A stretch of 64,000 bases of DNA. It comes from Thermoanaerobaculia bacterium. GTDB lineage: Bacteria > Acidobacteriota > Thermoanaerobaculia > UBA5066. A program made the position numbers and the translations under genes. The stretch's first letter is position 1. Each line of letters begins with the position of its first letter. Location: contig JBBRRY010000003.1 in assembly GCA_038245905.1 (NCBI GenBank), positions 96,001-160,000 of the forward strand, written 5' to 3'. Shown here one piece after another: positions 1 through 16,450 of this stretch. Under the pieces are notes generated by a model that worked only from the letters and a program-made list of their open reading frames with translations, searched no databases and had not been told where the DNA came from.

Positions 1-1027
1 AGTGCGCGAGAAGGACGCCGCCGACGGGCACGAGGAGCCCGCCGAGAAGGAGCATGAAGTCCGCGTAGCGCTCGAGCCAGCCGGAGAAGAGGGAAAGCGC
101 CGCGCCGACGATCCCGATCATCCAGATGGACGCGTGGTCGCGCGCCTTGGGGACGAGGCTCTTCCAGGCGAGGGCGGACATGTAGATGTTGACGAAGTTG
201 GTCGTGAGCGTCGCGAGGGCGAGGAGGACGGCGCCGAGGCCGCCGATTCCCGCGGCCGCGAGCATCGCGCCGGGGTTCGTCGAGCCCGCCGCGCGCGCCG
301 CGACGAATCCGAGCGGGAGGAACCAGAGGCTCGTCAGCGCGAGCCCGAGGAAAACGGCGACTGCCGCTTTTCCGGGCGAGCGCGTGTAGCGCGGGTAGTC
401 GCCGAAGACGAGAAGCCATGAGACCTGATACCCGATGACGACGTCGAGGCCCCGGACGGCGGTCATCGACCCGTTGCCAGGCGCGGCGGTCAACGCGGCT
501 GGGAGGCGCAGGCACGCGAACGTCAGGACGCCGCCGACGAGGAGGAGAAGGGGAACGGCGACGCGGTCCGCGTGAGAGACGGCGCGCGGCCCGCCCACAA
601 CGACGGCGGCCGCAAGGAGGCCGAGGCCGAATGCCCAGAACCGCTCGCTGCCCGGCCCGCCGAAGAGGCGCGCGCACGCGGACGCGGCGATCACGTTGTT
701 GACGGCGATCCACGCGAAGTTCGTGACATAGAGAATGAGCGAGACGAGGGCGCCGCCGCGAAGGCCGAGCGCGGCCCGGCACGCGACGACCGAAGGTACG
801 CCGAGGCGGGGCCCGAGCGGCGTGAGCGCCGCGACCAGCCCGCTCCCGAGGACGACGCCGCCCATGACGAGAAGAGCGGCCTGTTTGAGGCCGAACGCGG
901 GTGCGAGGCTCGCACCTGTCTGGAGCGTCGTCGCGACGAGGTTAGCCCCCGCGATGATGAGGAAAAGGTCGACGGGCGACTGCGTCTTCCCGGAGTCGGG
1001 GACCGGCCCGAGATCGGCGGCCTGCAT
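1..1027 (-). CDS. NCS1-family (cytosine/purine/HMP permease-like) transporter, 3' end outside window
   Basis: Not in ORF track because no stop lies in the window. Manual translation from ATG 1027: MQAADLGPVP...DLFLIIAGANLVATTLQTG...RAALGLRG...NFAWIAVNN...GYQVSWLLVFGDYPRY...TTNFVNIY. Multi-TM with NCS1-type motifs. Confidence 0.8.
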   Translation of the reverse strand, partial: MQAADLGPVPDSGKTQSPVDLFLIIAGANLVATTLQTGASLAPAFGLKQAALLVMGGVVLGSGLVAALTPLGPRLGVPSVVACRAALGLRGGALVSLILYVTNFAWIAVNNVIAASACARLFGGPGSERFWAFGLGLLAAAVVVGGPRAVSHADRVAVPLLLLVGGVLTFACLRLPAALTAAPGNGSMTAVRGLDVVIGYQVSWLLVFGDYPRYTRSPGKAAVAVFLGLALTSLWFLPLGFVAARAAGSTNPGAMLAAAGIGGLGAVLLALATLTTNFVNIYMSALAWKSLVPKARDHASIWMIGIVGAALSLFSGWLERYADFMLLLGGLLVPVGGVLLAH

Positions 1028-1039
1028 GCGAGGCCGAGC

Positions 1040-2155
1040 CTACGCGCTCCCTTCGGCGTCGGGGGAATCCTTTCCCCCGGCCTGGCGCGCGAGGAACGCG
1101 AGGATCGCTTCCTCGGCCCAGTACACGGGCGTGAGCCCCCGGGCCCCGACGAAGCCCGCGTGCCCGCCCTTCTCCGTCACGACGAAACGCACCGCGGACG
1201 ACGCGGCGTCCCGCGCGCGAAGAGTCGCTTCCGGCGGCAGGAACGGATCGTCGAGCGCCGAGATGCAGAGAGTCGGGACCGTGATGCGCGAAAGGAAGGG
1301 GAGGGAGCTCGAGCGCGCGTAGTAGTCGTCCGCGTTCGCGAAGCCGTGGAGCGGCGCCGTCGCGGCGTCGTCAAGCTCGCGAAACGTCCAGGCGCGTCGC
1401 GCACGCGGGAGATCGACCCGGGCGACCGCGTCGGGAAAGCGGCGCGCGAGATCGGCCATCTTCCTCGCGAGCGTCTTCACGAAGGCCCGGACGTAAAGCC
1501 GCGTCGGGAACGAAGCCATGTAGCGGTCGCCGGCGGCGAGATCGTATGGGACGGACAGGGTCGCGGCGGCCGCGACGATCGGGTCGTTCGGGTGCTCCCC
1601 GAGCCACTTCAGGAGCGCGTTTCCTCCGAGGGAAACACCCGCCGCGATCAGGGGCCGGCCGTCGCGGGCCGCGAGAGTGCGCGCCACGAAATCGAGGTCG
1701 GTGGTCTCGCCCGAGTGGTAGAGGCGCGGGCGTGCGTTCGGGAGAGGGACGCGAGGGTCCGCGGCGTCCCGCGCGCAGTACCGGAAGTTGAGGACGCTCG
1801 CGCTCCATCCGGCCCGCGCCGCGAGGGCGAGGAGGCCCTGGGCGTAGACCGAGTTCGAGCTGCCTTCGAGGCCGTGGAGGACGAGGAGGTGTGGAGCGGT
1901 CCGCGCGGCCGCGGGGCCCTCCCGATCGAGGTGGTCGACGTAGAGCGTGTCGCCATCGGGAGCCGTCAGCGCCTCGCGGCGCATCTTCACCATCCCCCTC
2001 GAGCGCGCGAGTCGGCCCCAGGTCGTCTGCGCGTGACGGCCTCTCAACCACCACGCGGGCGTGAAGTCCGCCAGTTTCTCGTCCGTGTGCGTTCGCGTTT
2101 CGTCCCTCGGCGCGGCGCCTTCGTCCCCTCGCTTCACCCTCGGGGCCGCGGACAT
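1040..2155 (-). CDS. YheT/ABHD-type alpha/beta hydrolase
   Basis: HAQT, LHGLEGSS, YHSG.T.D, GVSLGG nucleophile elbow, DDPF, GGHAGF. Exact start uncertain. Confidence 0.88.
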   Translation of the reverse strand: MSAAPRVKRGDEGAAPRDETRTHTDEKLADFTPAWWLRGRHAQTTWGRLARSRGMVKMRREALTAPDGDTLYVDHLDREGPAAARTAPHLLVLHGLEGSSNSVYAQGLLALAARAGWSASVLNFRYCARDAADPRVPLPNARPRLYHSGETTDLDFVARTLAARDGRPLIAAGVSLGGNALLKWLGEHPNDPIVAAAATLSVPYDLAAGDRYMASFPTRLYVRAFVKTLARKMADLARRFPDAVARVDLPRARRAWTFRELDDAATAPLHGFANADDYYARSSSLPFLSRITVPTLCISALDDPFLPPEATLRARDAASSAVRFVVTEKGGHAGFVGARGLTPVYWAEEAILAFLARQAGGKDSPDAEGSA

Positions 2156-2177
2156 TCTATTGTCCGGGGAGGACGTG

Positions 2178-2549
2178 ATGAGAGAGATCGATTTCGACCG
2201 GCGGCGTTTTCGGACCGTACGGAATTCGGACGCGGGCGAGACGTCTTCCGAGACCGTCTTCCACTACCGGCAGAAAGGCAGTGTCGTCTGGGCGACGTAC
2301 ATCGGGGGAAACGTGGCCTTCGGGACGCTCCTCGCGCGGGTGGACGGGAGGGGCCGGCTCGACATGGTGTACCAGCACCTGAACAAGAACGGCGATTTCA
2401 GGGCCGGGTCCTGCCACGCGCGGACCGAGGTTCTCCCGGACGGCAGGTACCGCCTCCACGAAACATGGGAGCGGACGTCCGGAGCCACCGGGAAGGGCCG
2501 ATCCATTTCCGAGGAGGTTCCGCGCCGCAGGACGCCGGCCCGTCCCTAA
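2178..2549 (+). CDS. Small conserved beta-rich protein (family often labelled 'N-acetylglutamate synthase'); function unclear
   Basis: GGAGG then ATG 2178; T.FHYRQ.G..VWATY.GG.V..G.L pattern, LHETW. Confidence 0.7.
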   Translation: MREIDFDRRRFRTVRNSDAGETSSETVFHYRQKGSVVWATYIGGNVAFGTLLARVDGRGRLDMVYQHLNKNGDFRAGSCHARTEVLPDGRYRLHETWERTSGATGKGRSISEEVPRRRTPARP

Positions 2550-2624
2550 GAAATGTGCTTTCGGCGACGGCGCGGGCCCCGTCGTCCCGAACCCGTCGCG
2601 GAATTCGCCGCGCCTCCCCACCTT
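2539..2624 (+). promoter_or_regulatory. Putative LytTR-activated promoter A (three boxes plus -10)
   Basis: CCCGTCCC 2539, TTCGGCGA 2560, GTCGTCCC 2581 (21-bp period); CACCTT at 2619, 38 nt after the last box start. Confidence 0.6.
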
Positions 2625-2695
2625 TGCCTCGCTCGGACAACCTCATTCCGGCGGCGAGCCGGAGACACGGGGTGTCTGCAAAGGAGGAGATCGAC

Positions 2696-5659
2696 ATGCG
2701 CCGGCCTTCACTCAGAATCGTTCTCGTCCTGCTCCTTCTCGGAAGTGCCGGGGCGGCTCTCGCCCAGGGACTCACGAGCGCGACCCTGAGAGGACGCGTC
2801 TCGAACGAGGGGCAGGGCCTTCCCGGAGTCACCGTGACGATCGCGTCGAAGAGCCTGCAGGGCTCGCGCACGTCTGTGACGACTTCGAACGGGGATTACG
2901 CGTTCGCGGGCGTCCCGCCCGGAGAGTATTCCGTGACCTTCGCGATCCAGGCGTTCAAGACCGTCACGCAAACTGTGGCGCTCTCGGCCGCCCAGGAAAC
3001 GCGCGTCGACACGGTCCTCAGCCTGACAGGCGTCGAAGCCGCGGCGACTGTCGTCGGAAGATCCGAACTCGTCTCGACGTCGTCCCCCCAGGCCTCGCAG
3101 ACGTTCACGAAAGAGCTCACCGACACGCTCCCGGTCGCGCGGACGCTCCTGTCGTCCGTGGCCCTCTCGGCCGGCGTGAACACGAACGGCCCCGGCTCGA
3201 GCGACCGGATCGGCAACGGCACCTCGCCCACCGTCACGATCTCGGGCGGCCAGTCGTTCGACAACCTGTTCACGGTGGACGGCGCGGTCATCACGGACAA
3301 CCTCCGCGGCACGCCGAACAACCTCTTCATCGAGGACGCGATCGCCGAGACGACGACGTCGACCTCGACGGTCTCGGCGGAGTTCGGGCGCTTCACGGGA
3401 GGCGTGGTGAACACCGTCACGAAGTCCGGCGGCAACACGTTCAGCGGCTCGTTCCGCACGACGTTCACGAACGCCGCGTGGTCCGCGACGACCCCCAAGA
3501 ACGAAGTCACGCCCCAGAAGCTCGACCCGCAGTACGAGGCGACTCTCGGCGGTCCGATCTGGAAGGACCACGTTTGGTTCTTCGGCTCCGGCCGCTACTT
3601 CGACCAGACGACCTCGGGCCAGACGACGTTCACGAACCTATCGTACCCGGTCGGCGACACCGAGAAGCGCTATCAGGGCAAGCTCACCCTCACGCCGGTG
3701 CCGAACCACTCTGTGACGGGGAACTACCTCCACGTCGACGAGGAGCAGACGAACTCGTCGTTCTGCCCGACCGGCTGCCTCGACCTCGACAGTCTCGTCG
3801 CGGCCCGCCAGCTTCCTCAGGACATCCTGACCCTCAACTACAACGGCGTCCTCTCGAACTCGTTCTTCATCGAGGGCCTCTATTCCCGCCGCAAGTTCAC
3901 GTTCGAGAACGGGGGATCCCCGTACACGGACCTCATCAAGGGGACGCTCCTGCGCGACCAGTCGCGGAGCAACGCCCGTTACAACTCCCCGACGTTCGGC
4001 AGCGACCCGGAGTCGCGCGACAACCGGGACTACCTCGTCAAGGGGACCTGGTTCCTCTCGACCGACAAGATCGGTTCCCACAACGTGGTGCTCGGGTACG
4101 ACAACTTCAGCGGCTCGCGAAAGGCCCAGAACCACCAGTCGGGAAGCGACTACCGCATCTTCGGGACGTCCGCGATCATCGCGAACGGCGACATTTATCC
4201 GGTTTTCGACGAGAGCACCTTCTTTTACTATCAGCCAATCACGAACCTGAGCCAGGGGTCGGACGCGCTCACGCACTCCGTGTTCCTGAACGATTCGTGG
4301 CGCCTCAGCGACCGACTCTCGTTCAACCTCGGCGTGCGCTGGGACAAGAACCACGCCAAGGACAGCATCGGCGTCGTCCGTGCGGACGACAGCGCCTTCA
4401 GCCCTCGCCTCGCGGCAACTTTCGACGTCACAGGCAAAGGCGCGCTCCGGGTCGGCGCGAGCTACGCCAAGTACGTCGGCGCGATTCAGGACAACCTCGT
4501 GGACTCCGCCTCGGACGGGGGCCAGGCCTCCACGTTCGTGTGGTACTACTCCGGGCCCGGCGCCACGCCCATCAACGTGAACCCCGCTTCGGGCGCGCCC
4601 CTCGTGACCCGCGCCCAGGCCCTCCAGCAGTTCTTCGGCTGGTTCTCCGCGCAGGGCTGCCCGAACCTCGCAACCTGCAAGGTTCCGCTCGCGGGCGCGA
4701 ACATCCCGGGCCTCACGACCCTGATCAACCAGTCGCTCGACTCCCCGTCCAACCTCGAGTACGTCGCGACGGTCTCCGGCAACGTCGGGTCGTCCTTCGC
4801 CTACCGGATGGACTTCGTGCGCCGTGAGGGCCGCGACTTCTACAACAACGTGATCGACGGAACGACGGGCTCGGGCTCGGACGCGTTCGGGAACACGTTC
4901 GACATCGGCACCATTAACAACTCGAACACCGTGAAGCGCAACTACACCGGGCTCCACACGAGCCTGTCGTACCGCCAGGGCGGGTTCAACGGGGGCGTCA
5001 ACTGGACGTGGTCGCACACGCTCGGGAACCTCAACGGCGAGACGACCGCGAGCGGACCCGTGCCGAACACGAGCGACACGTACCCGGAGTACGTGAACCC
5101 GGCCTGGAACAACCCGTACGGGTCCCTCGGGACGGACGAGCGCCACCGGGTCAAACTCTTTGCGTCCTACAACCTTCCTTTCATCCCCGCGCGCGACGGC
5201 TCGCTCAATATCAGCGGCGTTCAGTCGCTCGATACGGGAGTTCCGTACGGCGCGGTGGGCACGGTGGACTCGGGCCGTTACGTGACGGGCGCGCCGGCGT
5301 ACATCACACCGCCGACCTCGGTGGCCTACTACTTCACCGCCCGCGACGCCTTCCGGACGGACACGATCTACCGGACCGACCTGGCCCTCAACTTCGCGAC
5401 GAAGATCGCCAACACGGTCGAGATCTTCGTGCAGCCCCAGGTTCTAAACGTCTTCAACGGTCAGGGATTGAGGGGCGTGAGCACCTCAGTCCGGACCGCG
5501 GTCAACGCGTCGAAGCTCTACACCCGCTTCAACCCCTTCACGACGCAGCCCGTTCAGGGCGTCAACTGGGACTACGCCTCGACCTTCGGCAATGCCCGCA
5601 ACAACCTCGACTACCAGCTCCCACGGACGTTCACGATCGCGGCAGGCGTCCGCTTCTGA
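2696..5659 (+). CDS. TonB-dependent receptor, Oar-like, with N-terminal carboxypeptidase-regulatory-like domain
   Basis: AGGAGG RBS at 2682, ATG 2696, signal peptide, LPGVTVT, SAEFGRFTGGVVNTVTKSGGN plug, C-terminal F. The ORF-track extension to 572 is antisense to real genes. Confidence 0.92.
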   Translation: MRRPSLRIVLVLLLLGSAGAALAQGLTSATLRGRVSNEGQGLPGVTVTIASKSLQGSRTSVTTSNGDYAFAGVPPGEYSVTFAIQAFKTVTQTVALSAAQETRVDTVLSLTGVEAAATVVGRSELVSTSSPQASQTFTKELTDTLPVARTLLSSVALSAGVNTNGPGSSDRIGNGTSPTVTISGGQSFDNLFTVDGAVITDNLRGTPNNLFIEDAIAETTTSTSTVSAEFGRFTGGVVNTVTKSGGNTFSGSFRTTFTNAAWSATTPKNEVTPQKLDPQYEATLGGPIWKDHVWFFGSGRYFDQTTSGQTTFTNLSYPVGDTEKRYQGKLTLTPVPNHSVTGNYLHVDEEQTNSSFCPTGCLDLDSLVAARQLPQDILTLNYNGVLSNSFFIEGLYSRRKFTFENGGSPYTDLIKGTLLRDQSRSNARYNSPTFGSDPESRDNRDYLVKGTWFLSTDKIGSHNVVLGYDNFSGSRKAQNHQSGSDYRIFGTSAIIANGDIYPVFDESTFFYYQPITNLSQGSDALTHSVFLNDSWRLSDRLSFNLGVRWDKNHAKDSIGVVRADDSAFSPRLAATFDVTGKGALRVGASYAKYVGAIQDNLVDSASDGGQASTFVWYYSGPGATPINVNPASGAPLVTRAQALQQFFGWFSAQGCPNLATCKVPLAGANIPGLTTLINQSLDSPSNLEYVATVSGNVGSSFAYRMDFVRREGRDFYNNVIDGTTGSGSDAFGNTFDIGTINNSNTVKRNYTGLHTSLSYRQGGFNGGVNWTWSHTLGNLNGETTASGPVPNTSDTYPEYVNPAWNNPYGSLGTDERHRVKLFASYNLPFIPARDGSLNISGVQSLDTGVPYGAVGTVDSGRYVTGAPAYITPPTSVAYYFTARDAFRTDTIYRTDLALNFATKIANTVEIFVQPQVLNVFNGQGLRGVSTSVRTAVNASKLYTRFNPFTTQPVQGVNWDYASTFGNARNNLDYQLPRTFTIAAGVRF

Positions 5660-5687
5660 GGATCTGAACGTCGAATTCCCCTCTTTT

Positions 5688-5718
5688 AAGGGCTCCGGCA
5701 TCGCGCCGGAGCCCTTTT
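5688..5718 (+). terminator. Rho-independent terminator
   Basis: AAGGGCTCCGGC-loop-GCCGGAGCCCTT followed by TT. Confidence 0.8.
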
Positions 5719-5740
5719 CGGGGTCGTCGCCTTGCCCCGC

Positions 5741-5769
5741 GGCAACCCCGGCCCTCGCCGCGCCGTATC
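5741..5769 (+). promoter_or_regulatory. Putative ECF (SigW-like) promoter
   Basis: GGCAAC-N17-CGTATC upstream of the kinase gene. Confidence 0.45.
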
Positions 5770-5788
5770 CCACCCCGTGGAGAGCGGT

Positions 5789-5853
5789 TTCGTCCCCGTT
5801 TACAAGGCACCCGTCCCGGAGATGCCTCGTCCCGGTGCTCCGCCGGAGAAGAT
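5789..5853 (+). promoter_or_regulatory. Putative LytTR-activated promoter B
   Basis: TTCGTCCC 5789, CCCGTCCC 5810; GAAGAT at 5848 (+38). Confidence 0.55.
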
Positions 5854-5869
5854 CGGTGGAGACTCGTTC

Positions 5870-6967
5870 ATGAGTTCCTTCTGGAAGAGAACCTCGGTGA
5901 ATGTCGCGGCGTGGACCGTGGCCGGGTTCTTCTTCGCGAGCCAGCTCTACTTCCTCTACCCGATCGCGTCCGGTCGCGAGATGTCCTTCGCGCGGGCCCT
6001 CCTCATCAACCTGCCCTTCTACTACCTCTGGGCGCTCGTGACGCCCGCCATCCTCTCCCTCGCGCGGCGCTTCCCCATCGAGAGGGCGCACTGGAGAAAG
6101 CCGCTCGTCATTCACCTCGTCGCGAGCACGGCTCTTTCCGCGCTCCAGCTCTTCCTGGCCGGGGCATTTCTCCACCGGCTGACCGCCGTGACCGCGAGCC
6201 GCGCGGAGACCTTCTGGATGTCGCTCGCGCAGTTCTTCCGGCTGAACTTCCATGCGAACGTCCTCACGTACTGGGCTCTCGTGGGCCTCGCGTGGGGAGC
6301 GGACACGTACGCGAAGTACCGGGACCGCGAGCTCGCCGCTTCCCAGCTCGAGACCCAGCTCGCGCAGGCGGAGCTGGGAGCGCTGAAGATGCAGCTCCAG
6401 CCGCACTTCCTCTTCAACACGTTGAATGCGATCGCCGCGCTCCTGAAGTCGAAGCCGGATGCCGCCGAATGCATGATCCTGCAGCTCTCCGAGTTCCTGC
6501 GGCTGACATTGAGAAATACGGGGCGGCCGGACGTCTCGCTGCGCGAGGAGCTGGAGTTTCTGGAGCGCTACCTCGCCATCGAGAAGACGCGCTTTCAGGA
6601 CCGGTTGTCGACGCGCTTCCACATTCGTTCCGAAGTGCTCGACGTGCGCGTCCCGAACCTGCTCCTGCAGCCTCTCGTCGAGAACGCCATCCGCCACGGT
6701 ATCGCGCGGGAGAGCCGGGCGGGCCGGCTCGAGGTGAGCGCAAGCCACGAGCGCGGCCGTCTGCTTCTGCGCGTGACGGACGACGGGCCGGGCGCGCCGC
6801 CCGGGCCCGTCACCGAGGGCATTGGTCTCACGAACACGCGCGAACGCCTGCGACATCTCTTCGGCGACGCGTACACCCTTGAGTACGGAAACGCACCGGG
6901 CGGAGGTTTCCGCGTTTCGCTGACGCTCCCGCTCGTGTCCCCCGAAAGCGCGCCGTCGTCCCCGTAG
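5870..6967 (+). CDS. LytS/YehU-type membrane sensor histidine kinase
   Basis: About 4 N-terminal TM helices, LKMQLQPHFLFNTLN, LLQPLVENAIRHG, DDGPG, GIGL.N. Confidence 0.93.
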   Translation: MSSFWKRTSVNVAAWTVAGFFFASQLYFLYPIASGREMSFARALLINLPFYYLWALVTPAILSLARRFPIERAHWRKPLVIHLVASTALSALQLFLAGAFLHRLTAVTASRAETFWMSLAQFFRLNFHANVLTYWALVGLAWGADTYAKYRDRELAASQLETQLAQAELGALKMQLQPHFLFNTLNAIAALLKSKPDAAECMILQLSEFLRLTLRNTGRPDVSLREELEFLERYLAIEKTRFQDRLSTRFHIRSEVLDVRVPNLLLQPLVENAIRHGIARESRAGRLEVSASHERGRLLLRVTDDGPGAPPGPVTEGIGLTNTRERLRHLFGDAYTLEYGNAPGGGFRVSLTLPLVSPESAPSSP

Positions 6968-7027
6968 CACGGGAAGCCATCACGAAGTTCGAGACGCGCG
7001 GCGCCGCACGGACGAGATTGCGTCTCG

Positions 7028-7552
7028 ATGGCATCGGCCGCGCTCGCCTCGTTCTTTCGCCCCTCACCGGAGCTCGTTCTCGCGCTCACACTTCTCGAGG
7101 GCTCGCTCCGGGCCCCCGCGTACCGCCTCTGGGAGGCGGCGCGCTTCGGCCAGGAGGTCAGCGAGCGCGCGGCCTGGGTCCTGAAGGACGACGCGGGCCG
7201 CCTGCGCTGGCTGGCCTGGCCCGCCGAGTACCGGTACCGCCGCGCACAGTGGGAGGGTCCCGTCCCCGCGGACGCGGTCGCGATTGCCCACACCCACCCG
7301 ACGGCGGGCGATCCGAGGCCCTCGGAGCAGGACGTCGCAACCGCCCGCCGTCTCGGCGTGCCCGTCTACACGGTTTCCAGGAGCGGGATCTGGAAGGCCG
7401 TGCCGGACGGATCCGTCGTTTCGGTCGACGACGCGCAGTGGTGGAGCGCCTGCCGGGCGGGCGTCTGCGAGGAAACGCGTCATCCAGAATCCAGGAGCGC
7501 CGCGAGACCCACTGAATTGCGAAACCTCCGATCGGAATCCGCGTATCCCTGA
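7028..7552 (+). CDS. JAB/MPN+ (JAMM)-like metalloprotease domain protein
   Basis: E(RAAWV)...AIAHTHPTAGDPRPSEQD, matching E-xn-HxH-x8-SxxD; lies between kinase and regulator on the same strand. Confidence 0.7.
   Translation: MASAALASFFRPSPELVLALTLLEGSLRAPAYRLWEAARFGQEVSERAAWVLKDDAGRLRWLAWPAEYRYRRAQWEGPVPADAVAIAHTHPTAGDPRPSEQDVATARRLGVPVYTVSRSGIWKAVPDGSVVSVDDAQWWSACRAGVCEETRHPESRSAARPTELRNLRSESAYP
7520..7547 (+). promoter_or_regulatory. Putative internal ECF (SigW-like) promoter for the LytTR regulator
   Basis: CGAAAC-N16-CGTATC, ending 8 nt before ATG 7556. Confidence 0.55.
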
Positions 7553-7555
7553 GAA

Positions 7556-8338
7556 ATGAAGGGAATAATTCGCACGCTCATCGTCGACGACGAGCCCCTC
7601 TCGCGTGAGCGGCTCCGGGGACTCCTGGCGGACGAGCCGGAGGTCGAGGTCGTGGGGGAGTGCGGGGACGGCTGCCAGGCCGTCCTCGCGATCGAGGAAC
7701 TCAGGCCCGACCTTGTCTTTCTGGACGTCCAGGTGCCGAACCTCGACGGCTTCCACATCCTCGAGAGCGTCGGTCCGGACCGGATCCCGGCCGTCGTCTT
7801 CGTCACGGCCTACGACCAGTACGCCCTGCGTGCCTTCGACGTCCGCGCCGTCGACTACGTGCTCAAGCCGTTCGGCCGCGAGCGCCTGCAGAAGGCTCTC
7901 GAGCACGCGCGGGCCCAGATCATGCGAGAGAAGTCGAGCGATCTCTCGGGTCAGATCGTGGCCCTTCTCGAGGAGATGCGCCCGCCGCAGCATCGCTACC
8001 TGAGGCGGATCATGATCAAGGAAAGCGGGCGCCTGTTCTTCCTGAGGACGCCGGACGTCGACTGGGTCGAGGCGTCGGGGAACTACGTCCGCCTTCACGT
8101 GGGGGCCGAGTCGCACCTCCTCCGGGAGACGATGAACGGCCTCGAAGGCCGCCTCGATCCGGAGCGTTTCCTTCGGATCCATCGCTCGACGATCGTGAAC
8201 ATCGAGCGCATCAAGGAACTGCAGCCGTGGTTCCACGGGGACTACATCGTGATCCTCCGCGACGATCGGCAGCTCACGATGAGCGCGACCTATCGCGAGA
8301 AGCTCGACGAGCTGCGCGGGCGTACGCTGGCGTCCTGA
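7556..8338 (+). CDS. LytTR-family DNA-binding response regulator
   Basis: IVDDEPL, FLDVQ, FVTAYD, DYVLKP, FLRIHRSTIVN. Confidence 0.95.
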   Translation: MKGIIRTLIVDDEPLSRERLRGLLADEPEVEVVGECGDGCQAVLAIEELRPDLVFLDVQVPNLDGFHILESVGPDRIPAVVFVTAYDQYALRAFDVRAVDYVLKPFGRERLQKALEHARAQIMREKSSDLSGQIVALLEEMRPPQHRYLRRIMIKESGRLFFLRTPDVDWVEASGNYVRLHVGAESHLLRETMNGLEGRLDPERFLRIHRSTIVNIERIKELQPWFHGDYIVILRDDRQLTMSATYREKLDELRGRTLAS

Positions 8339-8385
8339 CCCTCGCGCCGAGGGATCGCCGTCCGGAATACCGTATCCAATCGCCG

Positions 8386-8471
8386 TCCGTCCGCCCGGCG
8401 GCGCCCTCCGTCCCCGGCGAAGCAGTGTCCGTCACAACTTAGTTGTTCGCGCGGAACGCCGACCGCACCGT
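8386..8471 (+). promoter_or_regulatory. Putative LytTR-activated promoter C (three boxes plus -10)
   Basis: TCCGTC at 8386, 8407 and 8428 (exact 21-bp period); CACCGT at 8466 (+38). Confidence 0.7.
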
Positions 8472-8532
8472 GAACCACACGATCCAGACCATCGACAGGT
8501 CCGGAATTTCCCTTTTTTTGAGGAGGACGGTG

Positions 8533-11500
8533 ATGCGCTCTTTTCGATGTCTGCTTTTCGTTCTGTTCGCCGTCGTGTCTCGCTGCTGGGGCGGCGAGGC
8601 CCTCGCGCAGACCACGGGTGACCTCGACGGCACCGTCGTGGACCAGTCCGGAGCGCCGTTGCCCGGCGTCTCCGTCGAGCTCCGGTCACCTCAGCTGCAG
8701 GGCTCGAGGACGGCGGTGACCGACGCCGCGGGCCGGTTCCGGTTCCCCGTGCTCGGCCCGGGCGTCTACTCCTTGTCGGCGCAGCTTTCGGGCTTCTCCA
8801 GGGTCGAGCGATCGAACCAGCGGGTCGCGCTGGGGGCGACGACGACGGTTCCGATCACGATGGGCATCTCGCTCAAGGAAGAGATCGTCGTGACGTCCGA
8901 GGCTCCCGTTGTCGACACGTCGAAGACGACGATCGGGACGAGCGCGACCCTCGAGAGCATCCAGCGCCTTCCGCTCGGACGGAACTTCGCCTCGATCGCG
9001 AGCACGGTCGCCGGGACCGGCACGGACGTGTCCGGGAACGTTACCGTGTACGGCGCGACGGGCCTCGAAAACGCCTACATCATCGACGGCGTCAACACGA
9101 CGGGCGTCAAGACGGGCGGGCAGGCCAAGCAGCTCAACAACGAATTCGTGCAGGAGGTCGAGGTCAAGACGGGCGGCTACGAAGCCGAGTTCGGACGCGT
9201 CCTCGGCGGCACGATCAACGTCGTGACGAAATCGGGCGGCAACGAATTCAAGGGCGACGCGTTCGGTTACTACGATTCCGGTTCGCTGGCCTCCAGCGAC
9301 GCGCGCACCGCGGAGCGGGTCGCTTCGAACCAGGGCGAGTACTTCTCGCCCAAGCGCGTCGACTTCGGAGTGGATCTCGGCGGCTACTTCGTGAAGGACC
9401 GCCTCTGGTTCTTCGGCGCGTTCGACCGTGTCACCCAGGACCAGGACTACACGCGCACCCTCGCGGTCCTGCGCGACGCGAACCAAACGCAGGTCTTGAC
9501 GAGCAATATGGACACGTACCGCAACAGTCTCTACTCGGGGAAGCTCACGTTCCGCCTCGGGGAGTCGAACACGATCGCGGCGTCCCTCTTCGGCGATCCG
9601 GGCACGTTCAGCGGCCGGTACAACCTGTCGCAGATCTCCGTGATGGTCGGGGCCGACGCCGCGTGGCTCGTCGACCGGAACCTGGGCGGGACAGACCTCT
9701 CGACGCGCTGGGACGGGCTCTTCGGCACGCAGTTCCTCGGGCAGGCCCAGCTCGGTTTCCACACCGAGAAGCAGCAGGACACGAGCCCGTTCTCGAACCT
9801 GCCGTACCTCGAAAAGCAGCAGGCCGGCTTCACGACCGAGGCGCTCCAGGGAACGGGCCCGATCTACCTCGTGGACGAGAAGTACCAGCGCTATCACTAC
9901 CGCCTGGGCGGCTCGCTGTTCACGGGCGCGCACGAGGTCAAGGCGGGCCTCGACTGGGAGCACCTGAGCTCCGATTTCTCGGAGTCCTACGGCGGCACGG
10001 ACCGCATCCGCACGCGGCTGACGGCGGGCGGGGCCCTCCGCAACTATCAGCACCGCTACTACGCCCAGACGCCGCTTTCGGGCGCGAACTGCCTGGGCAA
10101 GATCGACCCGACGATGCCGGCGGCGTTCCCGAACTGCACGGGCTACACGATCGCTCCAACCGTCGACAACAGGCCGATTACGGACAACGTCGGCCTGTTC
10201 GCGCAGGACACGTTCAAGGCCGCGAAGAACCTCACGATCAACGCTGGGATCCGCTACGAGCAGCAGCGCCTTCAGGACTACACGGGGAAGACCCTCGTGT
10301 CGATCGACGGCGAATGGTCGCCGCGCCTCGGAATCGTCTGGGACTTCCTCGGGAACGGGAAGTCGAAGGCGTACGCGAACGTCGGCCGCTTCTACGAAGT
10401 GATCCCGCAGGACATCCAGACCCGTGCGCTCGGAAACGAGTACATCATCTTCGCCCGCAACAACAGCGCGACGCCCGATCCCGTCGATCTCTTCTTCGGC
10501 GCCCCCATCGTCCAGGGCGGCGAGCTCACCCAGAGCGACCTCAAGGGCATGTACCAGGATGAAGCGATCCTGGGCTTCGAGGTCGAGGTCGCGAAGAACT
10601 GGGCGATCGGCGTCAAGGGCATCTACCGGTCTCTCGGCCGCGTCGTCGAGGACCGCTGCGACCTCGCGATCAACCCGGACATCGCGTCCTACTTCAACCC
10701 CTCGAGCCCGGCAACCTGCGCGCTCATCAACCCGGGCCAGGGAAACTCCCTCGGCACGATCAAGGACCCCTTCGACACGACCTGCTACCCGAACGGCGAG
10801 ACGGACGCGGCGGGCAACCTCGTCGCGGGGTCGCCCTGCGATTCGACGCAGCCGCGCCGTTACTTCCGCGGCCTGGAGCTCACCGCGTCCCACCGCTTCT
10901 CCGACCGCTTCTACCTTCTCGCCTCCTACCTCTACTCGAAGCTGGAAGGGAATTACTCGGGCAACCTCTCGCAGACGCGGGAAGGCGGCCAGTCGGATCC
11001 CAACATCAACGCCGACTTCGACTACCCGGGGCTCGTCACGAACGCCTTCGGCCGGCTCCGCAACGACCGGACTCACCAGTTCAAGCTCTCGGGTTACTAC
11101 GCGTTCCCGTTCGGCCTGACGGTGGGCGCGAACGGCTTCTACAACACGGGCCGCCCGTACTCGATCCGGGGCTGCGCCTCCGACTCGATCGCATGCGACG
11201 CAGGCTACAGCCAGGAGGGCTACCTCGTGCCGCGCGGCTCGGCGGGCGACCTTCCCGCCGCGTACGAGGCGGACCTGCACCTCGAGTGGGGCCTCCGCTT
11301 CGGCAACGTCTCGATCACGCCCATCCTCGACGTCTTCAACGCGCTCAACCGGCAGGGCGTCCTGAGCCGGGAAGAGCTCTTCAACAACACGGCAGCGCTG
11401 CCCGGAAACGATCCCAGGAGCGGCATCGGCCAGCCCGGCTGCACGGCGCAGAACGCGAGCCTGAGCAACGCCGCGTGCGCCTCGAATCCCACCTACGGAA

Positions 11501-11559
11501 AGGACATCGGCTTCCAAAACCCGCGGGTCGTGCGTCTCGGCGCCCGCGTGTCTTTCTGA
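8533..11559 (+). CDS. TonB-dependent receptor, Oar-like
   Basis: AGGAGG RBS at 8521, signal peptide ending ALAQ, LPGVSV, EAEFGRVLGGTINVVTKSGGN, C-terminal F. Confidence 0.92.
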   Translation: MRSFRCLLFVLFAVVSRCWGGEALAQTTGDLDGTVVDQSGAPLPGVSVELRSPQLQGSRTAVTDAAGRFRFPVLGPGVYSLSAQLSGFSRVERSNQRVALGATTTVPITMGISLKEEIVVTSEAPVVDTSKTTIGTSATLESIQRLPLGRNFASIASTVAGTGTDVSGNVTVYGATGLENAYIIDGVNTTGVKTGGQAKQLNNEFVQEVEVKTGGYEAEFGRVLGGTINVVTKSGGNEFKGDAFGYYDSGSLASSDARTAERVASNQGEYFSPKRVDFGVDLGGYFVKDRLWFFGAFDRVTQDQDYTRTLAVLRDANQTQVLTSNMDTYRNSLYSGKLTFRLGESNTIAASLFGDPGTFSGRYNLSQISVMVGADAAWLVDRNLGGTDLSTRWDGLFGTQFLGQAQLGFHTEKQQDTSPFSNLPYLEKQQAGFTTEALQGTGPIYLVDEKYQRYHYRLGGSLFTGAHEVKAGLDWEHLSSDFSESYGGTDRIRTRLTAGGALRNYQHRYYAQTPLSGANCLGKIDPTMPAAFPNCTGYTIAPTVDNRPITDNVGLFAQDTFKAAKNLTINAGIRYEQQRLQDYTGKTLVSIDGEWSPRLGIVWDFLGNGKSKAYANVGRFYEVIPQDIQTRALGNEYIIFARNNSATPDPVDLFFGAPIVQGGELTQSDLKGMYQDEAILGFEVEVAKNWAIGVKGIYRSLGRVVEDRCDLAINPDIASYFNPSSPATCALINPGQGNSLGTIKDPFDTTCYPNGETDAAGNLVAGSPCDSTQPRRYFRGLELTASHRFSDRFYLLASYLYSKLEGNYSGNLSQTREGGQSDPNINADFDYPGLVTNAFGRLRNDRTHQFKLSGYYAFPFGLTVGANGFYNTGRPYSIRGCASDSIACDAGYSQEGYLVPRGSAGDLPAAYEADLHLEWGLRFGNVSITPILDVFNALNRQGVLSREELFNNTAALPGNDPRSGIGQPGCTAQNASLSNAACASNPTYGKDIGFQNPRVVRLGARVSF

Positions 11560-11584
11560 GATCGCGCGAGACCTCCTGAATCAC

Positions 11585-11614
11585 GGGGCCGGCCGGGGGT
11601 CGGCCCCTTTTTTT
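11585..11614 (+). terminator. Rho-independent terminator
   Basis: GGGGCCGGCC-GGG-GGTCGGCCCC followed by T7. Confidence 0.88.
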
Positions 11615-11624
11615 CTACGCGTCC

Positions 11625-14600
11625 TCACTTCGGAAGCGGGACGACGGCGAACCCCCCTTCGAGGTCCGCGACGAAGAGGCGCTTCTTCGGCAGCAGGGCG
11701 AGCCCCGAGGGCTTCTGGAACCGCTGCCCTTCCGGAAGGTCCTTCCCGCGCAGCGTCGTCACGAGGCGGCCTTCGGTCGTGTAGCCGCGCACTTCGCCCG
11801 CGAGCGGTACCGACGCCCAGAGGAGCCCGCCCGCATCCAGCGCGAGATAGGGTTCGGAGAACGTGGTGCGACTCCAGCCCGCGACGTCCCAGGCGCGCAC
11901 GAAGGTTCCGTTCCTGTCGAAGACGGCGATTCTTCCGTTTCCGTTGTCGGCCACGTAGACCTTGCCGTCTTTGGAAACGACGAGGCCCTGCGGGTCGGCG
12001 AGCTTCCCCGGAGCGGCCCCCTTGCCCCACTCGGCCTCCTGGTGGCCGGAGGCGTCGAAGCGCACGATCCGGCCGTTGCCCGTGTCCGCAACGAAGATCG
12101 ATCCGCTGGAATCCACCGCGATGCCACGCGGCCCGAAGAAGCCGCCGTCCCACTCGCGCTGCCAGGCGCCCTTCCCGTCGAAGACCTGCACGCGGCCGTT
12201 CCACGTGTCGGCCACGAAGACGAGGCCCGACGGAGCGACCGCGATCCCGCACGGGTCGTTGAACTGCCCGGGCCCGCTGCCGCGCGCTCCGAGCTGGAGA
12301 GCCGGAGATCCGTCCGCCGCGAAGAGCTGGATCCGCTGGTTTCCGAAGTCGGCGACCCAGACGCGGCCGGTGGCGTCCGAGGCCGCGCCCCGAGGCTGTC
12401 GGAGTCGGCCGGGGGCGTCGGCGGGCGGTTGCAGGGCGGCGTCCGCCTTCCGCGGCGAAGTGGGAAGCTCCTCCACGCGCACGGGAGCCGCAGCAACGCC
12501 AGGCGAAAAGACGCCCTTCACGGCGAAGAGGACGATCTCGGGATTGCGGTAGACGGGCGTCAGGAGATCCGTCCACTCTTCGAAGTGCGCGAGATTTCCG
12601 CCGGCGTACGTCTTACGCTCGAGATTCCCGACGGCGACGAGCGCGACGTGTGTGCGGAAAAGGATGCGCTTGACGACGGCTTCGTCGGCCGACGTGTAGG
12701 CCGTTACGATGTCCTCCTTGCGGCGGTCGATCTCCGCCTGCGTGTGGCCGCGCTGCGACACGTGGTAGTCCCACCCGAGCACGCTCGGGAGTCCCGTGAA
12801 GACCGAGAGACGCGTGAACTGCTGGTACGAGGGCCCGTGGGCTTCGAGGAGCACGGGCAGGCCCGTCACGTTCGCGTTGATCCACTCGACAGCGCCGCGA
12901 TCTCCGGGGTTCTGCTTCTCGAGGTAGGCGGTCCCGTCCAGTGTGAAGCGCGGCCAGCCGCCGCGATCAGTGCGCAGGAAACCCGTGAACGCCGTGACGA
13001 GCGTATAGAGCGCGGCGAGTCCCGTGACCGCGATGGCGACGCGCCACGCGATGCTTCGTGACCGGCGCAACGTCTCCCACGCGAGCGCTCCCGCCACGGA
13101 GAAGAGGAGCCACGTCTCGAGGTGAAACTTGAAGATCGTGTTCATGCGGTCCCAGACGTAGACGATCTCCGCGCCTGTCAGGATGGCGAAACCCAGGGCC
13201 ACGAGAGCGAGCGCGGGCCGCAGGCGCGCCTCCGTCGCTCCGCGGAGCGCCGCCCCGAGCGCGACGAGAAAGGCGATCGCCGTGAAGGTGCGGATCGAAG
13301 GAGCCTGCGCGAGCCGAAGCGGATGGAACGAGAGAGAGAGGAGAGAGACGGCAAGCCCGAGCGCCGCGAGAAAGAGAAACACGCGCGCAACGCGTCCGCG
13401 GGGCACGAGGCCGGTCTTCCACGCCGCGAACGCGAACGGGAGGAGAAGCGCGACGAAGAACGCCCACACATTGAAAAAGTCCCATGGCGCGGCCCACGGC
13501 CCGACCTCGCGCCCCCAGTTTCGCGGCGGAGGAGAGAAATGCGCCCAGAACGGCCTCTCCAGAAGAAACGCGATGAGGGCGACTCCCGCGGCCGGGAGGA
13601 GGACGTCTTTCGCGAGGCTCGCGGCGAGAGGGACCCCGCGCGCCCGGCCGCCGAGCCACACGACGCCGGGCAGAAAGAGGAGAAGACAGGCGTAGACGGG
13701 CGTCGACCAACCGCTCGTGATCGGAATCGCGGCGAGGAAAAGGCCGCCGAGTGCGATGAGGCTTGCCGCCTGGCGCGTCGAGGAGGGGCCCTCCTGATTC
13801 CTTGTCACGAAGAGGAGGAGAACCGCTATGAAGGCTGTCGTGAAGGGAAGGACGAAAACGTGCGCGTGGAGATCCGCGAAGAGAAACGTCCAGAACGGGT
13901 ATTCGCTGATGCCGTTCGGGGGGATGACCCGCGACGTTGCCCAGAAGTAGTGCCAGTCGAGGGGACGGCCGGCCTGGTGAAAGTGGAAATCGAAGGCAGT
14001 TCGGGGGCCGGATGGCGGCGCGAGGAAGGCGAGGACGAGCGCGACCCCGCCCGCCCGGAGACGGCCACCGATGGCCGAGCCAGCGGCGAGCATGGCCGAC
14101 GCGAAGAGCGCGGCCGTCATGGCGAGCGCGAGATTGAAGATGAGCCCCGGATGAATCCCGAGGAGCTTGGCCGCGGCGGCCGCGAGGAAGTGGCCGAAGT
14201 ACGTGTAGGAAAGGGTTGTGCCGGCGAGCCACGGCTCGGGCGGCGGCAAGGCGGTTGCTCGAAGGAGCGTGTTGAGGAAATCGAAGTCCATGGGCTTTTC
14301 ACCCGAGTGAATCTCGGGGTTGAGGGCGCGGACGGCCAGGAAGAAGAGGAACGTTCCCCAGAACACGAGCGCCGTCTTCCATCGCTCGGGTGCGGGCGTC
14401 GCCACGCCCGCGCGGCGCGCGCACAGGAAGCCGGCCGCGAGAAGCGCGGTCGTCGTGACGACGAGGAGGCTGCGGGTGAATGGCGCCCAGTGCCAGGAGA
14501 CGACGAGCCACGGCAGGAACGCGAAGAGGAGAACGCCGGTCACGCGCCCGAGCGCGTCACGGCCGGGCCGCGCGGGGAGGAGGACGGCGAGGATTCCAGC

Positions 14601-16427: not shown

Positions 16428-16450
16428 TTCGCTTAAGATAGCGGGAGCAA

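Follow-up and report, generated by a model that had tools for sequence, protein, structure and literature searches.

A conserved module of a LytS-like kinase, a predicted JAB metallopeptidase, a LytTR regulator and TonB-dependent receptors in Thermoanaerobaculia

Organization and conservation of the locus

The genome of a Thermoanaerobaculia bacterium (UBA5066; assembly GCA_038245905.1) carries on contig JBBRRY010000003.1 a compact group of genes in which a small predicted metallopeptidase of the JAB/MPN+ type, hereafter JAB, is encoded between a membrane sensor kinase and a LytTR-type response regulator, and flanked by two TonB-dependent receptors (TBDR1 and TBDR2). The stretch considered, hereafter the window, comprises 64,000 nt (forward-strand positions 96,001-160,000 of the contig) and was analyzed over its positions 1-16574, a region of 63-72% G+C; genes, fold, motif, synteny, and the repeats with their clustering were computed directly. 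Open reading frames (ORFs) and Pfam matches give the order TBDR1, sensor kinase, JAB, REC-LytTR regulator, TBDR2. As an earlier annotation made from the letters alone (the sequence-only reading) had it, the two receptors, each followed by its own terminator hairpin, bracket the kinase and the regulator, with all five genes on the + strand. That annotation started the module at 2539, which fits the upstream boxes of TBDR1 (from about 2540), while the TBDR1 gene itself occupies 2696-5659.

Kinase, JAB, LytTR regulator and TBDR stay linked in two classes of acidobacteria. Scanning one genome per species yielded 80 JAB loci, which were compared with the window proteins by tblastn. Twelve of them are orthologous to the window (L002-L013; JAB at least 52% identical; Thermoanaerobaculia/Acidobacteriota metagenome-assembled genomes, MAGs) and keep the order kinase-JAB-regulator, together with TBDR2 where the contig allows, the exception being L006, whose available sequence begins at JAB. 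Eight further loci of a Blastocatellia type (L053, L059, L067, L069, L070, L073, L078 and L081; two are labelled as 'Clostridia' MAGs) have the rearranged order kinase-regulator-JAB-TBDR: the regulator precedes JAB in all eight, a kinase match lies upstream in seven, and a TBDR match lies downstream in seven. Their kinases and regulators are 40-46% and 55-58% identical to those of the window, and their JABs only 27-37%. The synteny that the sequence-only reading had expected among homologues is therefore found in the 12 orthologous loci and, rearranged, in these eight. Counting distinct genes by tblastn across the 80 loci, within 3 kb of JAB (437 kb in total) and more than 5 kb away from it (534 kb), gives 21 versus 0 for LytTR, 18 versus 0 for the kinase, and 23 versus 6 for TBDRs; neighbour clusters built on our own gene calls were used as leads only.

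JAB is present in 15 of the 24 other genomes of the genus and is absent from all 16 genomes that represent two further families of the order. Five genomes of the genus that lack JAB (96-99% complete) also lack a close kinase: four have a best match of 34-43% identity and the fifth has none, compared with 69-93% in the orthologous loci. The module is therefore gained and lost as a unit. A cassette formed by TBDR1 and a small ORF upstream of it occurs in the window, L002, L003, L005 and L009-L011, and is missing from L004, L007, L008 and L012. Because this cassette comes and goes, the core of the module is kinase-JAB-regulator-TBDR2.

Features of the analyzed region, by window position:

1040-2155, - strand: alpha/beta hydrolase, divergent (flank scan)
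2079-2129, + strand: three 9-bp boxes TCGTCCGTG / TCGTCCCTC / TCGTCCCCT with 21-bp phasing, in the gap that separates the divergent alpha/beta-hydrolase gene from the small ORF
2178-2549, + strand: small conserved ORF, 123 aa, with homologues; forms a cassette with TBDR1
2540-2590, + strand: boxes CCGTCCCTA (2540) and TCGTCCCGA (2582) around a degenerate one, TCGGCGACG (2561), 5' of TBDR1; CGTCCCGAACCCGTCGCG is kept in orthologues
2696-5659, + strand: TBDR1, 987 aa, with signal peptide, CarboxypepD_reg and barrel (Pfam)
5688-5716, + strand: terminator hairpin after TBDR1, 12-bp stem followed by UUUUC (folding energy; compensatory stem change in orthologues)
5790-5819, + strand: box pair TCGTCCCCG / CCGTCCCGG before the kinase (pattern scan; same pair in L002 and L005)
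5870-6967, + strand: sensor histidine kinase, 365 aa from the ATG at 5870, in an ORF open from 5732 (Pfam, reading of transmembrane segments)
6956-6985, + strand: box pair TCGTCCCCG / CCATCACGA with one mismatch, over the kinase stop codon and 72 nt before the JAB start (pattern scan)
7028-7552, + strand: predicted JAB/MPN+ metallopeptidase, 174 aa (Pfam, alignment, AlphaFold model)
7556-8338, + strand: response regulator, REC and LytTR, starting 3 nt past the JAB stop codon (Pfam, NCBIfam)
8387-8437, + strand: three boxes CCGTCCGCC / CCGTCCCCG / CCGTCACAA with 21-bp phasing, then a conserved GTTGTTC, before TBDR2 (pattern scan, alignment)
8533-11559, + strand: TBDR2, 1008 aa, with signal peptide, CarboxypepD_reg, weak Plug and barrel, in an ORF from 8443 (Pfam)
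11585-11607, + strand: terminator hairpin after TBDR2, 10-bp stem followed by U7 (folding energy)
11625-16574, - strand: membrane protein, 1649 aa, DUF2298/PMT_2/NHL (Pfam/NCBIfam)

The kinase has clear Pfam matches to His_kinase PF06580 (1.3e-27) and HATPase_c (6.7e-11), and its H-box His179 is invariant in 18 orthologues. Four transmembrane helices with short outer loops can be read from its sequence, the membrane segments being highly conserved, and no Pfam match to a 5TM-5TMR_LYT or GAF sensor region was obtained at E <= 0.01. On these grounds the name LytS kinase, given to it in the sequence-only reading, suits the kinase core only and not the sensor region; with four helices and short outer loops, the protein appears to have no obvious sensor domain. 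The regulator matches Response_reg (3.4e-22) and LytTR (3.8e-25) in Pfam, and Asp57 is its presumed phosphate acceptor. Its best NCBIfam matches are BtsR (1e-50) and LytR (1.1e-40), both below the equivalog cut-offs (172.4 versus 246 bits and 140 versus 375 bits, respectively). Translational read-through of the kinase TAG codon into the in-frame JAB gene was considered and dropped, as the common frame follows from a start-to-start distance fixed at 1158 nt in eight loci.

Concerning the receptors, both TBDR1 and TBDR2 match CarboxypepD_reg, OMP_b-brl_4 and TonB_dep_Rec_b-barrel in Pfam, and neither contains an STN signalling domain by the same searches. A Plug match reaches 20.1 bits in TBDR2, against a cut-off of 23.9, and is absent from TBDR1 at E <= 0.01. 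TBDR1 is preceded by a ribosome-binding site aaaggagga and starts with the signal peptide MRRPSLRIVLVLLLLGSAGAALAQG. An N-terminal CarboxypepD_reg domain combined with a TonB-dependent barrel makes the architecture of both receptors Oar-type, a likeness of architecture only. The hairpin behind TBDR1 has a folding energy of -25.7 kcal/mol (z -4.3; none of 200 shuffles as good) and that behind TBDR2 one of -22.3 kcal/mol (z -2.9; 2 of 200 shuffles as good). No sigma or anti-sigma gene was found by the neighbour scan in the module of the window.

The small ORF at 2178-2549 starts 49 nt downstream of a triple set of LytTR-type boxes. Its homologues are widespread, carry the precomputed label PF26421, and are called 'n-acetylglutamate synthase' in some sources; it has no match in the PDB or in local copies of Pfam and NCBIfam. 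Between the first box set and this ORF lies a palindrome with perfect arms, GGACA-TTCTAT-TGTCC (2150-2165), which may be an operator for another regulator; words resembling it (..ATTCTATTGTC..) are kept at the equivalent site in L004, L007, L008 and L013. On the other side of the module, the minus-strand protein at 11625-16574 combines PMT_2, DUF2298 (TIGR03662 'chlor_Arch_YYY', 8.7e-118) and C-terminal NHL repeats, and is a syntenic neighbour, 63-82% identical, in 12 of 12 orthologous loci.

The JAB protein and its family

The motif E...HTHP...PSxxD that had been picked out from the sequence is present in JAB, as E46 (7163-7165), H88-T-H90-P (7289-7300), P98-S99 and D102 (7331-7333). Across 94 aligned relatives there is no variation at E46, A85, H88, H90, P91 and D102, and at least 90% of them share T89, P98 and S99, the S99 position being substituted in several Blastocatellia-type members. 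Eight residues separate the second His from the Ser, where the canonical spacing of the JAMM motif is seven. Pfam assigns the protein to Prok-JAB (PF14464) at 7.2e-07 (29.5 bits, cut-off 25). The AlphaFold model computed from the alignment of 94 relatives has a mean predicted local distance difference test score (pLDDT) of 78.8, residues 149-174 being disordered. The best matches of this model in Foldseek are PfJAMM1 (E 6e-4), an Rpn11 homologue, AF2198 and Cap3, while VIA-align gives AMSH at Z 9.1 (root-mean-square deviation 3.8 Å, 129 residues aligned) and PfJAMM1 at Z 8.6 (3.1 Å, 107 aligned), and all of its top 50 structural matches are JAMM/MPN proteins. The JAMM identity proposed earlier thus agrees with the predicted structure, in which a JAB fold is recovered. 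Model and alignment together support a JAB fold with an intact metal-binding and catalytic motif; zinc binding and hydrolysis are predicted.

We found 63 close relatives, and where their source is named it is Thermoanaerobaculia or Acidobacteriota. A wider profile search of 1.84 billion representatives, clustered at 50% identity, returned 1,767 clusters at E <= 1e-3 and at least 1,047 at E <= 1e-10; among the 150 matches listed, nearly all are 120-250 aa long. At E <= 0.01, 83 of the 94 aligned family members match Prok-JAB, 25 match DUF4329/Tox-JAB-2 and 18 match RadC, the JAB of the window itself reaching 15.2 bits (E 0.022) against DUF4329 (PF14220), whose cut-off is 28.6. By these profiles the family is placed between Prok-JAB, DUF4329/Tox-JAB-2 and RadC, in agreement with the ESM Atlas. 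A few members have other architectures: in P0063 the JAB domain comes after an RHS-type ...DPLGL junction, in the manner of a polymorphic toxin; P0065 (307 aa) contains two profile matches; and P0132 (450 aa) has its JAB at the C-terminus. Two JAB genes each are found in L033 and L034.

The JABs of the window, L002, L004, L005 and L006 are short forms that make up one derived clade in a tree of JABs. They still have the catalytic residues, Cys141 and Cys147, and the tail RNLxxESAYP, and in their loci the distance from kinase start to JAB start is unchanged at 1158 nt. With dN/dS (the ratio of nonsynonymous to synonymous substitution rates) at 0.23-0.46 within this clade, the short forms remain under selection. 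The pair C141/C147, a Cys-x5-Cys arrangement, is kept in both short and long forms. Residues 143-174 (7454-7552) form a disordered tail that closes in a conserved RNLxxESAY(P/R), a sequence that differs in the subclade of L010-L013, where it reads (A/G)RxLRIT(E/R).

Most members of the family appear to be exported. By crude hydrophobicity heuristics applied to 80 sequences (the window JAB and 79 homologues), a strict signal-peptide test is passed by 37 and a relaxed one (an uncharged hydrophobic N-terminal 10-mer) by 69, and nearly all relatives start with a signal-peptide- or lipobox-like N-terminus. Passages of the survey by Zhang et al. (2012; PMC3482391) describe the prokaryotic JABs known by then as intracellular, and an exported, stand-alone JAB family would be unusual in that light.

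The neighbours of the family are of several regulatory kinds. For 52 of the 80 loci, a gene of the LytS/LytTR, Ser/Thr-kinase/FHA or AraC kind is found no more than 3 kb from JAB. One neighbour cluster of 49 proteins in 30 loci contains Pkinase (21), PD40 (21), Trans_reg_C (20) and FHA (17) domains, among them winged helix-turn-helix (wHTH)-FHA proteins of about 210 aa that are mostly divergent from JAB. Near and far counts over the 80 loci are 23 versus 0 for wHTH-FHA, 22 versus 5 for Ser/Thr kinases and 5 versus 0 for AraC. Among the other loci scanned, L058 has an RskA anti-sigma gene beside JAB and L037 a Crp regulator, and a few loci have peptidases or cell-wall enzymes nearby (M28, M29, M23, Amidase_3). 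In a tree of 81 JABs, a split with 100% support puts the Blastocatellia-type two-component-linked clade and the Thermoanaerobaculia clade in separate divisions, and the two-component label needs two changes, which suggests that the link between JAB and LytTR is either ancient or was made twice. Since a mostly secreted family adjoins so many kinds of regulator, the JAB of the window has more the look of an envelope enzyme under tight regulation than of a component dedicated to LytTR signalling.

Two further arrangements deserve mention in their own right. At L075:8451-13551 an extracytoplasmic function (ECF) sigma factor, a 158-aa gene with no Pfam match, a JAB of 238 aa and a CarboxypepD_reg TBDR follow each other on one strand with gaps of 12-40 nt, a layout resembling FecI/FecR/FecA with JAB inserted. 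A paralogous JAB lies 0-340 nt from a gene of about 210 aa with Trans_reg_C and FHA domains, mostly divergent, in L015, L019, L021-L023, L027, L032 and L034-L036; the same pairing occurs in L040, L045, L052, L056, L057, L062, L063, L066, L076, L077 and others. These loci usually also contain, no more than 3 kb away, a Ser/Thr kinase, which often has PD40 propeller, OmpA or TPR domains, and we know of no description of this recurrent unit.

Direct repeats upstream of the module genes

Published accounts of LytTR regulators (PMC6193735, PMC4064291) include sites that lie just 5' of the -35 element and consist of 9-bp direct repeats spaced by 12 bp, and give the AlgR 9-mer as CCGTTCGTC. In the module, short conserved words of CGTCC type emerged when the upstream regions were aligned. 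We searched for the pattern YCGTCCC-N14-YCGTCMC with at most one mismatch, corresponding to 9-bp repeats and 12-bp spacers, and compared the result with 100 shuffles. The window has six matches, all on the + strand (2079, 2100, 5790, 6956, 8387 and 8408), against 1.06 expected, and no shuffle reaches six. They belong to five sets of boxes, upstream of the small ORF (2079/2100/2121), TBDR1 (2540/(2561)/2582), the kinase (5790/5811), JAB (6956/6977) and TBDR2 (8387/8408/8429). A box architecture common to both receptors and the kinase had been noticed beforehand; it extends to JAB, and is weaker at TBDR1, where two good boxes 42 bp apart enclose a degenerate one.

The repeats are concentrated in this locus. 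Of 20 strict-pattern matches across the 3.8-Mb genome, five fall in this 6.4-kb stretch, and most of the 15 outside the locus lie within long open frames. Across the 12 orthologous loci (223 kb) we counted 24 strict matches in 11 loci, all on the + strand and all upstream of module genes, where about 0.9 would be expected as reckoned from the genome-wide rate. Ten precede TBDR2, five JAB, two the kinase and five the genes of the small ORF/TBDR1 cassette, and two belong to the hydrolase-side set. A strict pair stands 72 nt before the JAB start in L003, L005, L009, L010 and L011, the kinase pair recurs 80 nt upstream of the kinase in L002 and L005, and boxes of the small-ORF type are found 77-95 nt upstream of that ORF in L002, L003 and L010. 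In Blastocatellia-type loci the layout is CTCGTCAC, 21 bp on CCATCACAA, 21 bp on TCATCCCAA, then GTTGTT, and this triple-box arrangement precedes both JAB and the TBDR. Looser patterns are not specific when taken alone: CCGTC-N16-CCGTC has three matches in the window against 1.35 expected, and loose boxes genome-wide number 74 versus 42-49 (double) and 12 versus 3-6 (triple) in five simulations.

Boxes in LytTR geometry before the receptors, the kinase and JAB fit an autoregulated LytTR regulon, and it is probably the regulator of the module that binds them. Such a circuit, which the sequence-only reading had put forward, is supported by the repeats as far as sequence goes. The further idea of a protease that produces, trims or degrades the signal, or cleaves a component, goes beyond the evidence on JAB, which presents it as a conserved, separately promoted member of the regulon.

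Other elements were seen in the same genome and in related leaders. Outside the window, at G000:C2:181587 (+), a strict pair TCGTCCC..N14..TCGTCCC stands 47 nt before an ABC-transporter ATPase-like ORF (181662-182444), which may be a further target of the same or a similar LytTR regulator. In L053, L059, L069, L073, L078 and L081 the presumed 5' leader of the Blastocatellia-type JAB genes contains, about 90-140 nt before the JAB start, a conserved inverted repeat GGCGCGCGTT...AACGCGCGC; the spacers between JAB and TBDR in these loci are long (320-530 nt) and contain further conserved blocks.

Function of the module and comparison with known systems

In our interpretation the stretch is a single conserved module of accessory genes that belongs to a genus of Thermoanaerobaculia. 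A LytS-like membrane kinase with short external loops would phosphorylate the LytTR response regulator, which would bind the 9-bp direct repeats (YCGTCCC.., 12-bp spacing) before five transcription units, namely the small ORF, TBDR1, the kinase, JAB-regulator and TBDR2, and probably activate all of them. The circuit would thereby regulate itself while switching on two receptors of the CarboxypepD_reg type and a small JAB/MPN+ zinc peptidase. JAB would be an output or feedback part, and not a JAB of the ubiquitin-like, CBASS or phage-tail kind; this role suits it better than that of an obligatory sensor subunit, because it has a box pair of its own in both lineages and its paralogues stand beside one-component regulators. 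Its likely task would be that of an envelope-directed hydrolase cutting an extended peptide or isopeptide in the material that the receptors handle or that the kinase senses. Part of the argument is that JAB active sites are described in one source as accepting an extended chain (PMC3239186), and part is that the family is mostly exported. Binding and activation by the regulator, as well as the activity, compartment and substrate of the peptidase, are what we infer here. Taken as a whole, a regulon under LytTR control, with the receptors and a hydrolase acting in the envelope on receptor cargo or kinase input as its outputs, is the interpretation we lean towards, with a little more confidence than doubt.

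Several observations weigh against it. The Prok-JAB match covers just residues 81-119 (39 residues) of JAB, Foldseek TM-scores are modest (0.36-0.62), and a family-profile search of solved structures using sequence only returned nothing significant (best 2kcq, E 0.56). Short-form JABs lack about 30 residues, including the signal peptide, that sister forms such as L003 possess, and the N-terminus of the window JAB passes the relaxed signal-peptide rule and fails the strict one; for both reasons the protein could be cytoplasmic. Within the module JAB also changes fastest, at 63-72% identity versus 82-97% for kinase, regulator and TBDR2 in the same loci. Neither an inner-membrane transporter nor an obvious substrate gene was detected in the module by Pfam or the neighbour scan. 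The 26 paralogue loci linked to Ser/Thr kinases mostly have no TBDR within 3 kb, which indicates that JAB is not tied to TonB transport as such. Finally, Zhang et al. (2012) raise, in the part of their survey devoted to related toxin JABs, the possibility that these are nucleases rather than peptidases (PMC3482391).

Other roles for JAB have to be weighed against these data. JAB might be an accessory signalling component that binds or cleaves the kinase, another envelope signalling protein or a ligand, as do CpxP, QseG, DbfQ or the site-1 proteases of anti-sigma pathways in their own systems. A kinase with short loops and no Pfam sensor domain may need an input partner, and JAB is encoded between kinase and regulator, with a gap of 3 nt to the latter. 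Its relatives stand beside three other types of membrane signalling (Ser/Thr kinases with PD40, the ECF sigma factor of L075 and RskA of L058), small periplasmic third components next to two-component genes have precedents in the accounts available, and the conserved tails vary with the subclade (RNLxxESAYP or RLRITE), as could be the case for a docking motif. However, JAB is also found by cytoplasmic one-component regulators (AraC in five loci, Crp), for which no periplasmic partner is needed, a LytTR-box promoter of its own precedes it in both lineages, as expected of a target gene, and the window protein is without a canonical signal peptide; we regard this role as rather unlikely. About as doubtful in our view is a bolder scheme in which JAB is a signal-processing protease: the receptors would import or expose a peptide-bearing pro-signal, JAB would cut it, and the LytS-type kinase, devoid of a sensor domain, would read the product or its loss, the exported stand-alone JAB/MPN+ family being a module shared by two-component, Ser/Thr kinase-FHA and ECF envelope signalling. 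The missing signal peptide also counts against JAB as a cell-wall hydrolase acting on peptidoglycan stem peptides or isopeptides, with the module serving envelope remodelling or wall scavenging. Most family members are predicted to be exported, an M23 peptidase stands by the paralogue of L025 with related neighbours clustering in L018 and L033, Amidase_3 occurs in L054, and three members of the kinase/regulator neighbour cluster have OmpA domains. For the JAB domain in tail protein K of phage lambda an action on the cell wall has been proposed, and LytSR systems are named for the control of autolysis. Yet neighbours of the peptidoglycan type are a minority among the 80 loci, with none in the module of the window, and no peptidoglycan-cutting JAB was found in the literature searched, so that we give this role little credence.

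For export through the receptors the same N-terminus would be an argument in favour. JAB could be carried outwards by the flanking Oar-type receptors and work outside the cell: the window protein has no canonical signal peptide and nevertheless a conserved Cys pair, both receptors combine CarboxypepD_reg and barrel as in Oar-like architecture, and PopC of Myxococcus likewise has no signal peptide. Oar-dependent secretion of PopC is reported in the published account (PMC6434023). Most relatives of JAB, however, do have signal peptides, many lack an adjacent receptor, the likeness to Oar is one of domain architecture alone, and outward transport by a TonB-dependent transporter is a single known case, all of which makes this route very improbable. 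Least probable of all would be a toxin-type domain of the Tox-JAB-2/DUF4329 kind, possibly a nuclease, directed at competitors and released under control of the two-component system. DUF4329 matches 25 of the 94 members at E <= 0.01, and the window protein weakly (E 0.022), DUF4329 clusters are among the nearest in the ESM Atlas, the relative P0063 has its RHS-type ...DPLGL junction before the JAB domain, and an H[ST]H motif is tabulated for Tox-JAB-2 in Zhang et al. (PMC3482391). Against this stand the DUF4329 score of the window JAB, which is under the cut-off (15.2 versus 28.6 bits), the lack of RHS or any other trafficking domain in it, and the lack of a conserved small downstream, immunity-like gene in the neighbour clustering; a toxin with neither signal peptide nor carrier is implausible.

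If the preferred interpretation holds, with JAB as a regulated envelope hydrolase, the module would give a function to one of the many uncharacterized TonB-receptor loci of Acidobacteriota and would exemplify TonB receptors under LytTR control. Bacterial JAB/MPN+ proteins have known roles as cytoplasmic partners of ubiquitin-like systems, in CBASS and phage tails, or as toxin domains. The window module is the cleanest case in which to look for the role of an exported JAB, being compact, co-inherited and provided with readable regulator sites before each unit, and it turns that role into a testable question; were the signal-processing scheme true, it would be a new kind of TonB-linked envelope signalling. 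The arrangement had been thought undescribed, and searches of open-access full text agree, with no description found there of JAB with LytTR and TonB receptors, of signal-peptide JABs with two-component systems, of a secreted acidobacterial JAMM or of JAB/MPN proteins in connection with periplasm, peptidoglycan and LytTR, while DUF4329 appears in the literature searched in toxin surveys only. The parts are of known kinds; their combination, and an exported JAB family linked to regulators, appear to be undescribed.

Among two-component systems, the closest likeness in layout is to AlgZ(FimS)/AlgR, LytS/LytR and BtsS/BtsR, which also pair a PF06580 membrane kinase with a REC-LytTR regulator. The boxes of the window are CCGT/CGTC-rich 9-mers reminiscent of the AlgR 9-mer CCGTTCGTC as cited above, and are 12-bp-spaced direct repeats like other LytTR sites in those accounts. 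The kinase differs from LytS and BtsS in that no 5TM-5TMR_LYT or GAF region is detected, the regulator differs from LytR and BtsR in falling under both equivalog cut-offs, and neither a JAB between kinase and regulator nor TonB receptors as targets were found described for this group in the literature searched.

Concerning the enzyme, JAB has the fold and the E, HxH, S and D motif in common with the JAMM-MPN+ proteins PfJAMM1, AF2198, Cap3 and AMSH. JABs of the ubiquitin-like (Ubl)/E1, CBASS and phage-tail types differ in their setting: as the sequence-only reading had also remarked, no ubiquitin-like, E1, CD-NTase or tail gene is found among the neighbours scanned, and the recurrent neighbours of JAB across the 80 loci are signalling genes. 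Whereas the earlier prokaryotic JABs covered in the survey cited above (PMC3482391) are intracellular, most members here have signal peptides. With Tox-JAB-2/DUF4329 the family shares the H[ST]H variant as tabulated in that survey, a weak profile likeness, proximity in the ESM Atlas and one RHS-fused relative (P0063); it differs in that the window protein scores below the Pfam cut-off and in that the family is stand-alone, without trafficking domain or immunity gene, and linked to regulators.

CpxP, QseG and DbfQ resemble the JAB family in what is reported of their setting, each being a small, usually exported protein encoded in or next to kinase-regulator genes, although by the same accounts they are not JABs. 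Finally, FecA/FecR/FecI and utilization loci that combine a regulator with a TBDR share with the window a dedicated sensor and regulator encoded together with the receptors that they apparently control. In place of the sigma and anti-sigma factors of FecA/FecR/FecI, the module of the window has a two-component system; no STN domain was detected on its receptors, and JAB is its sole enzyme.

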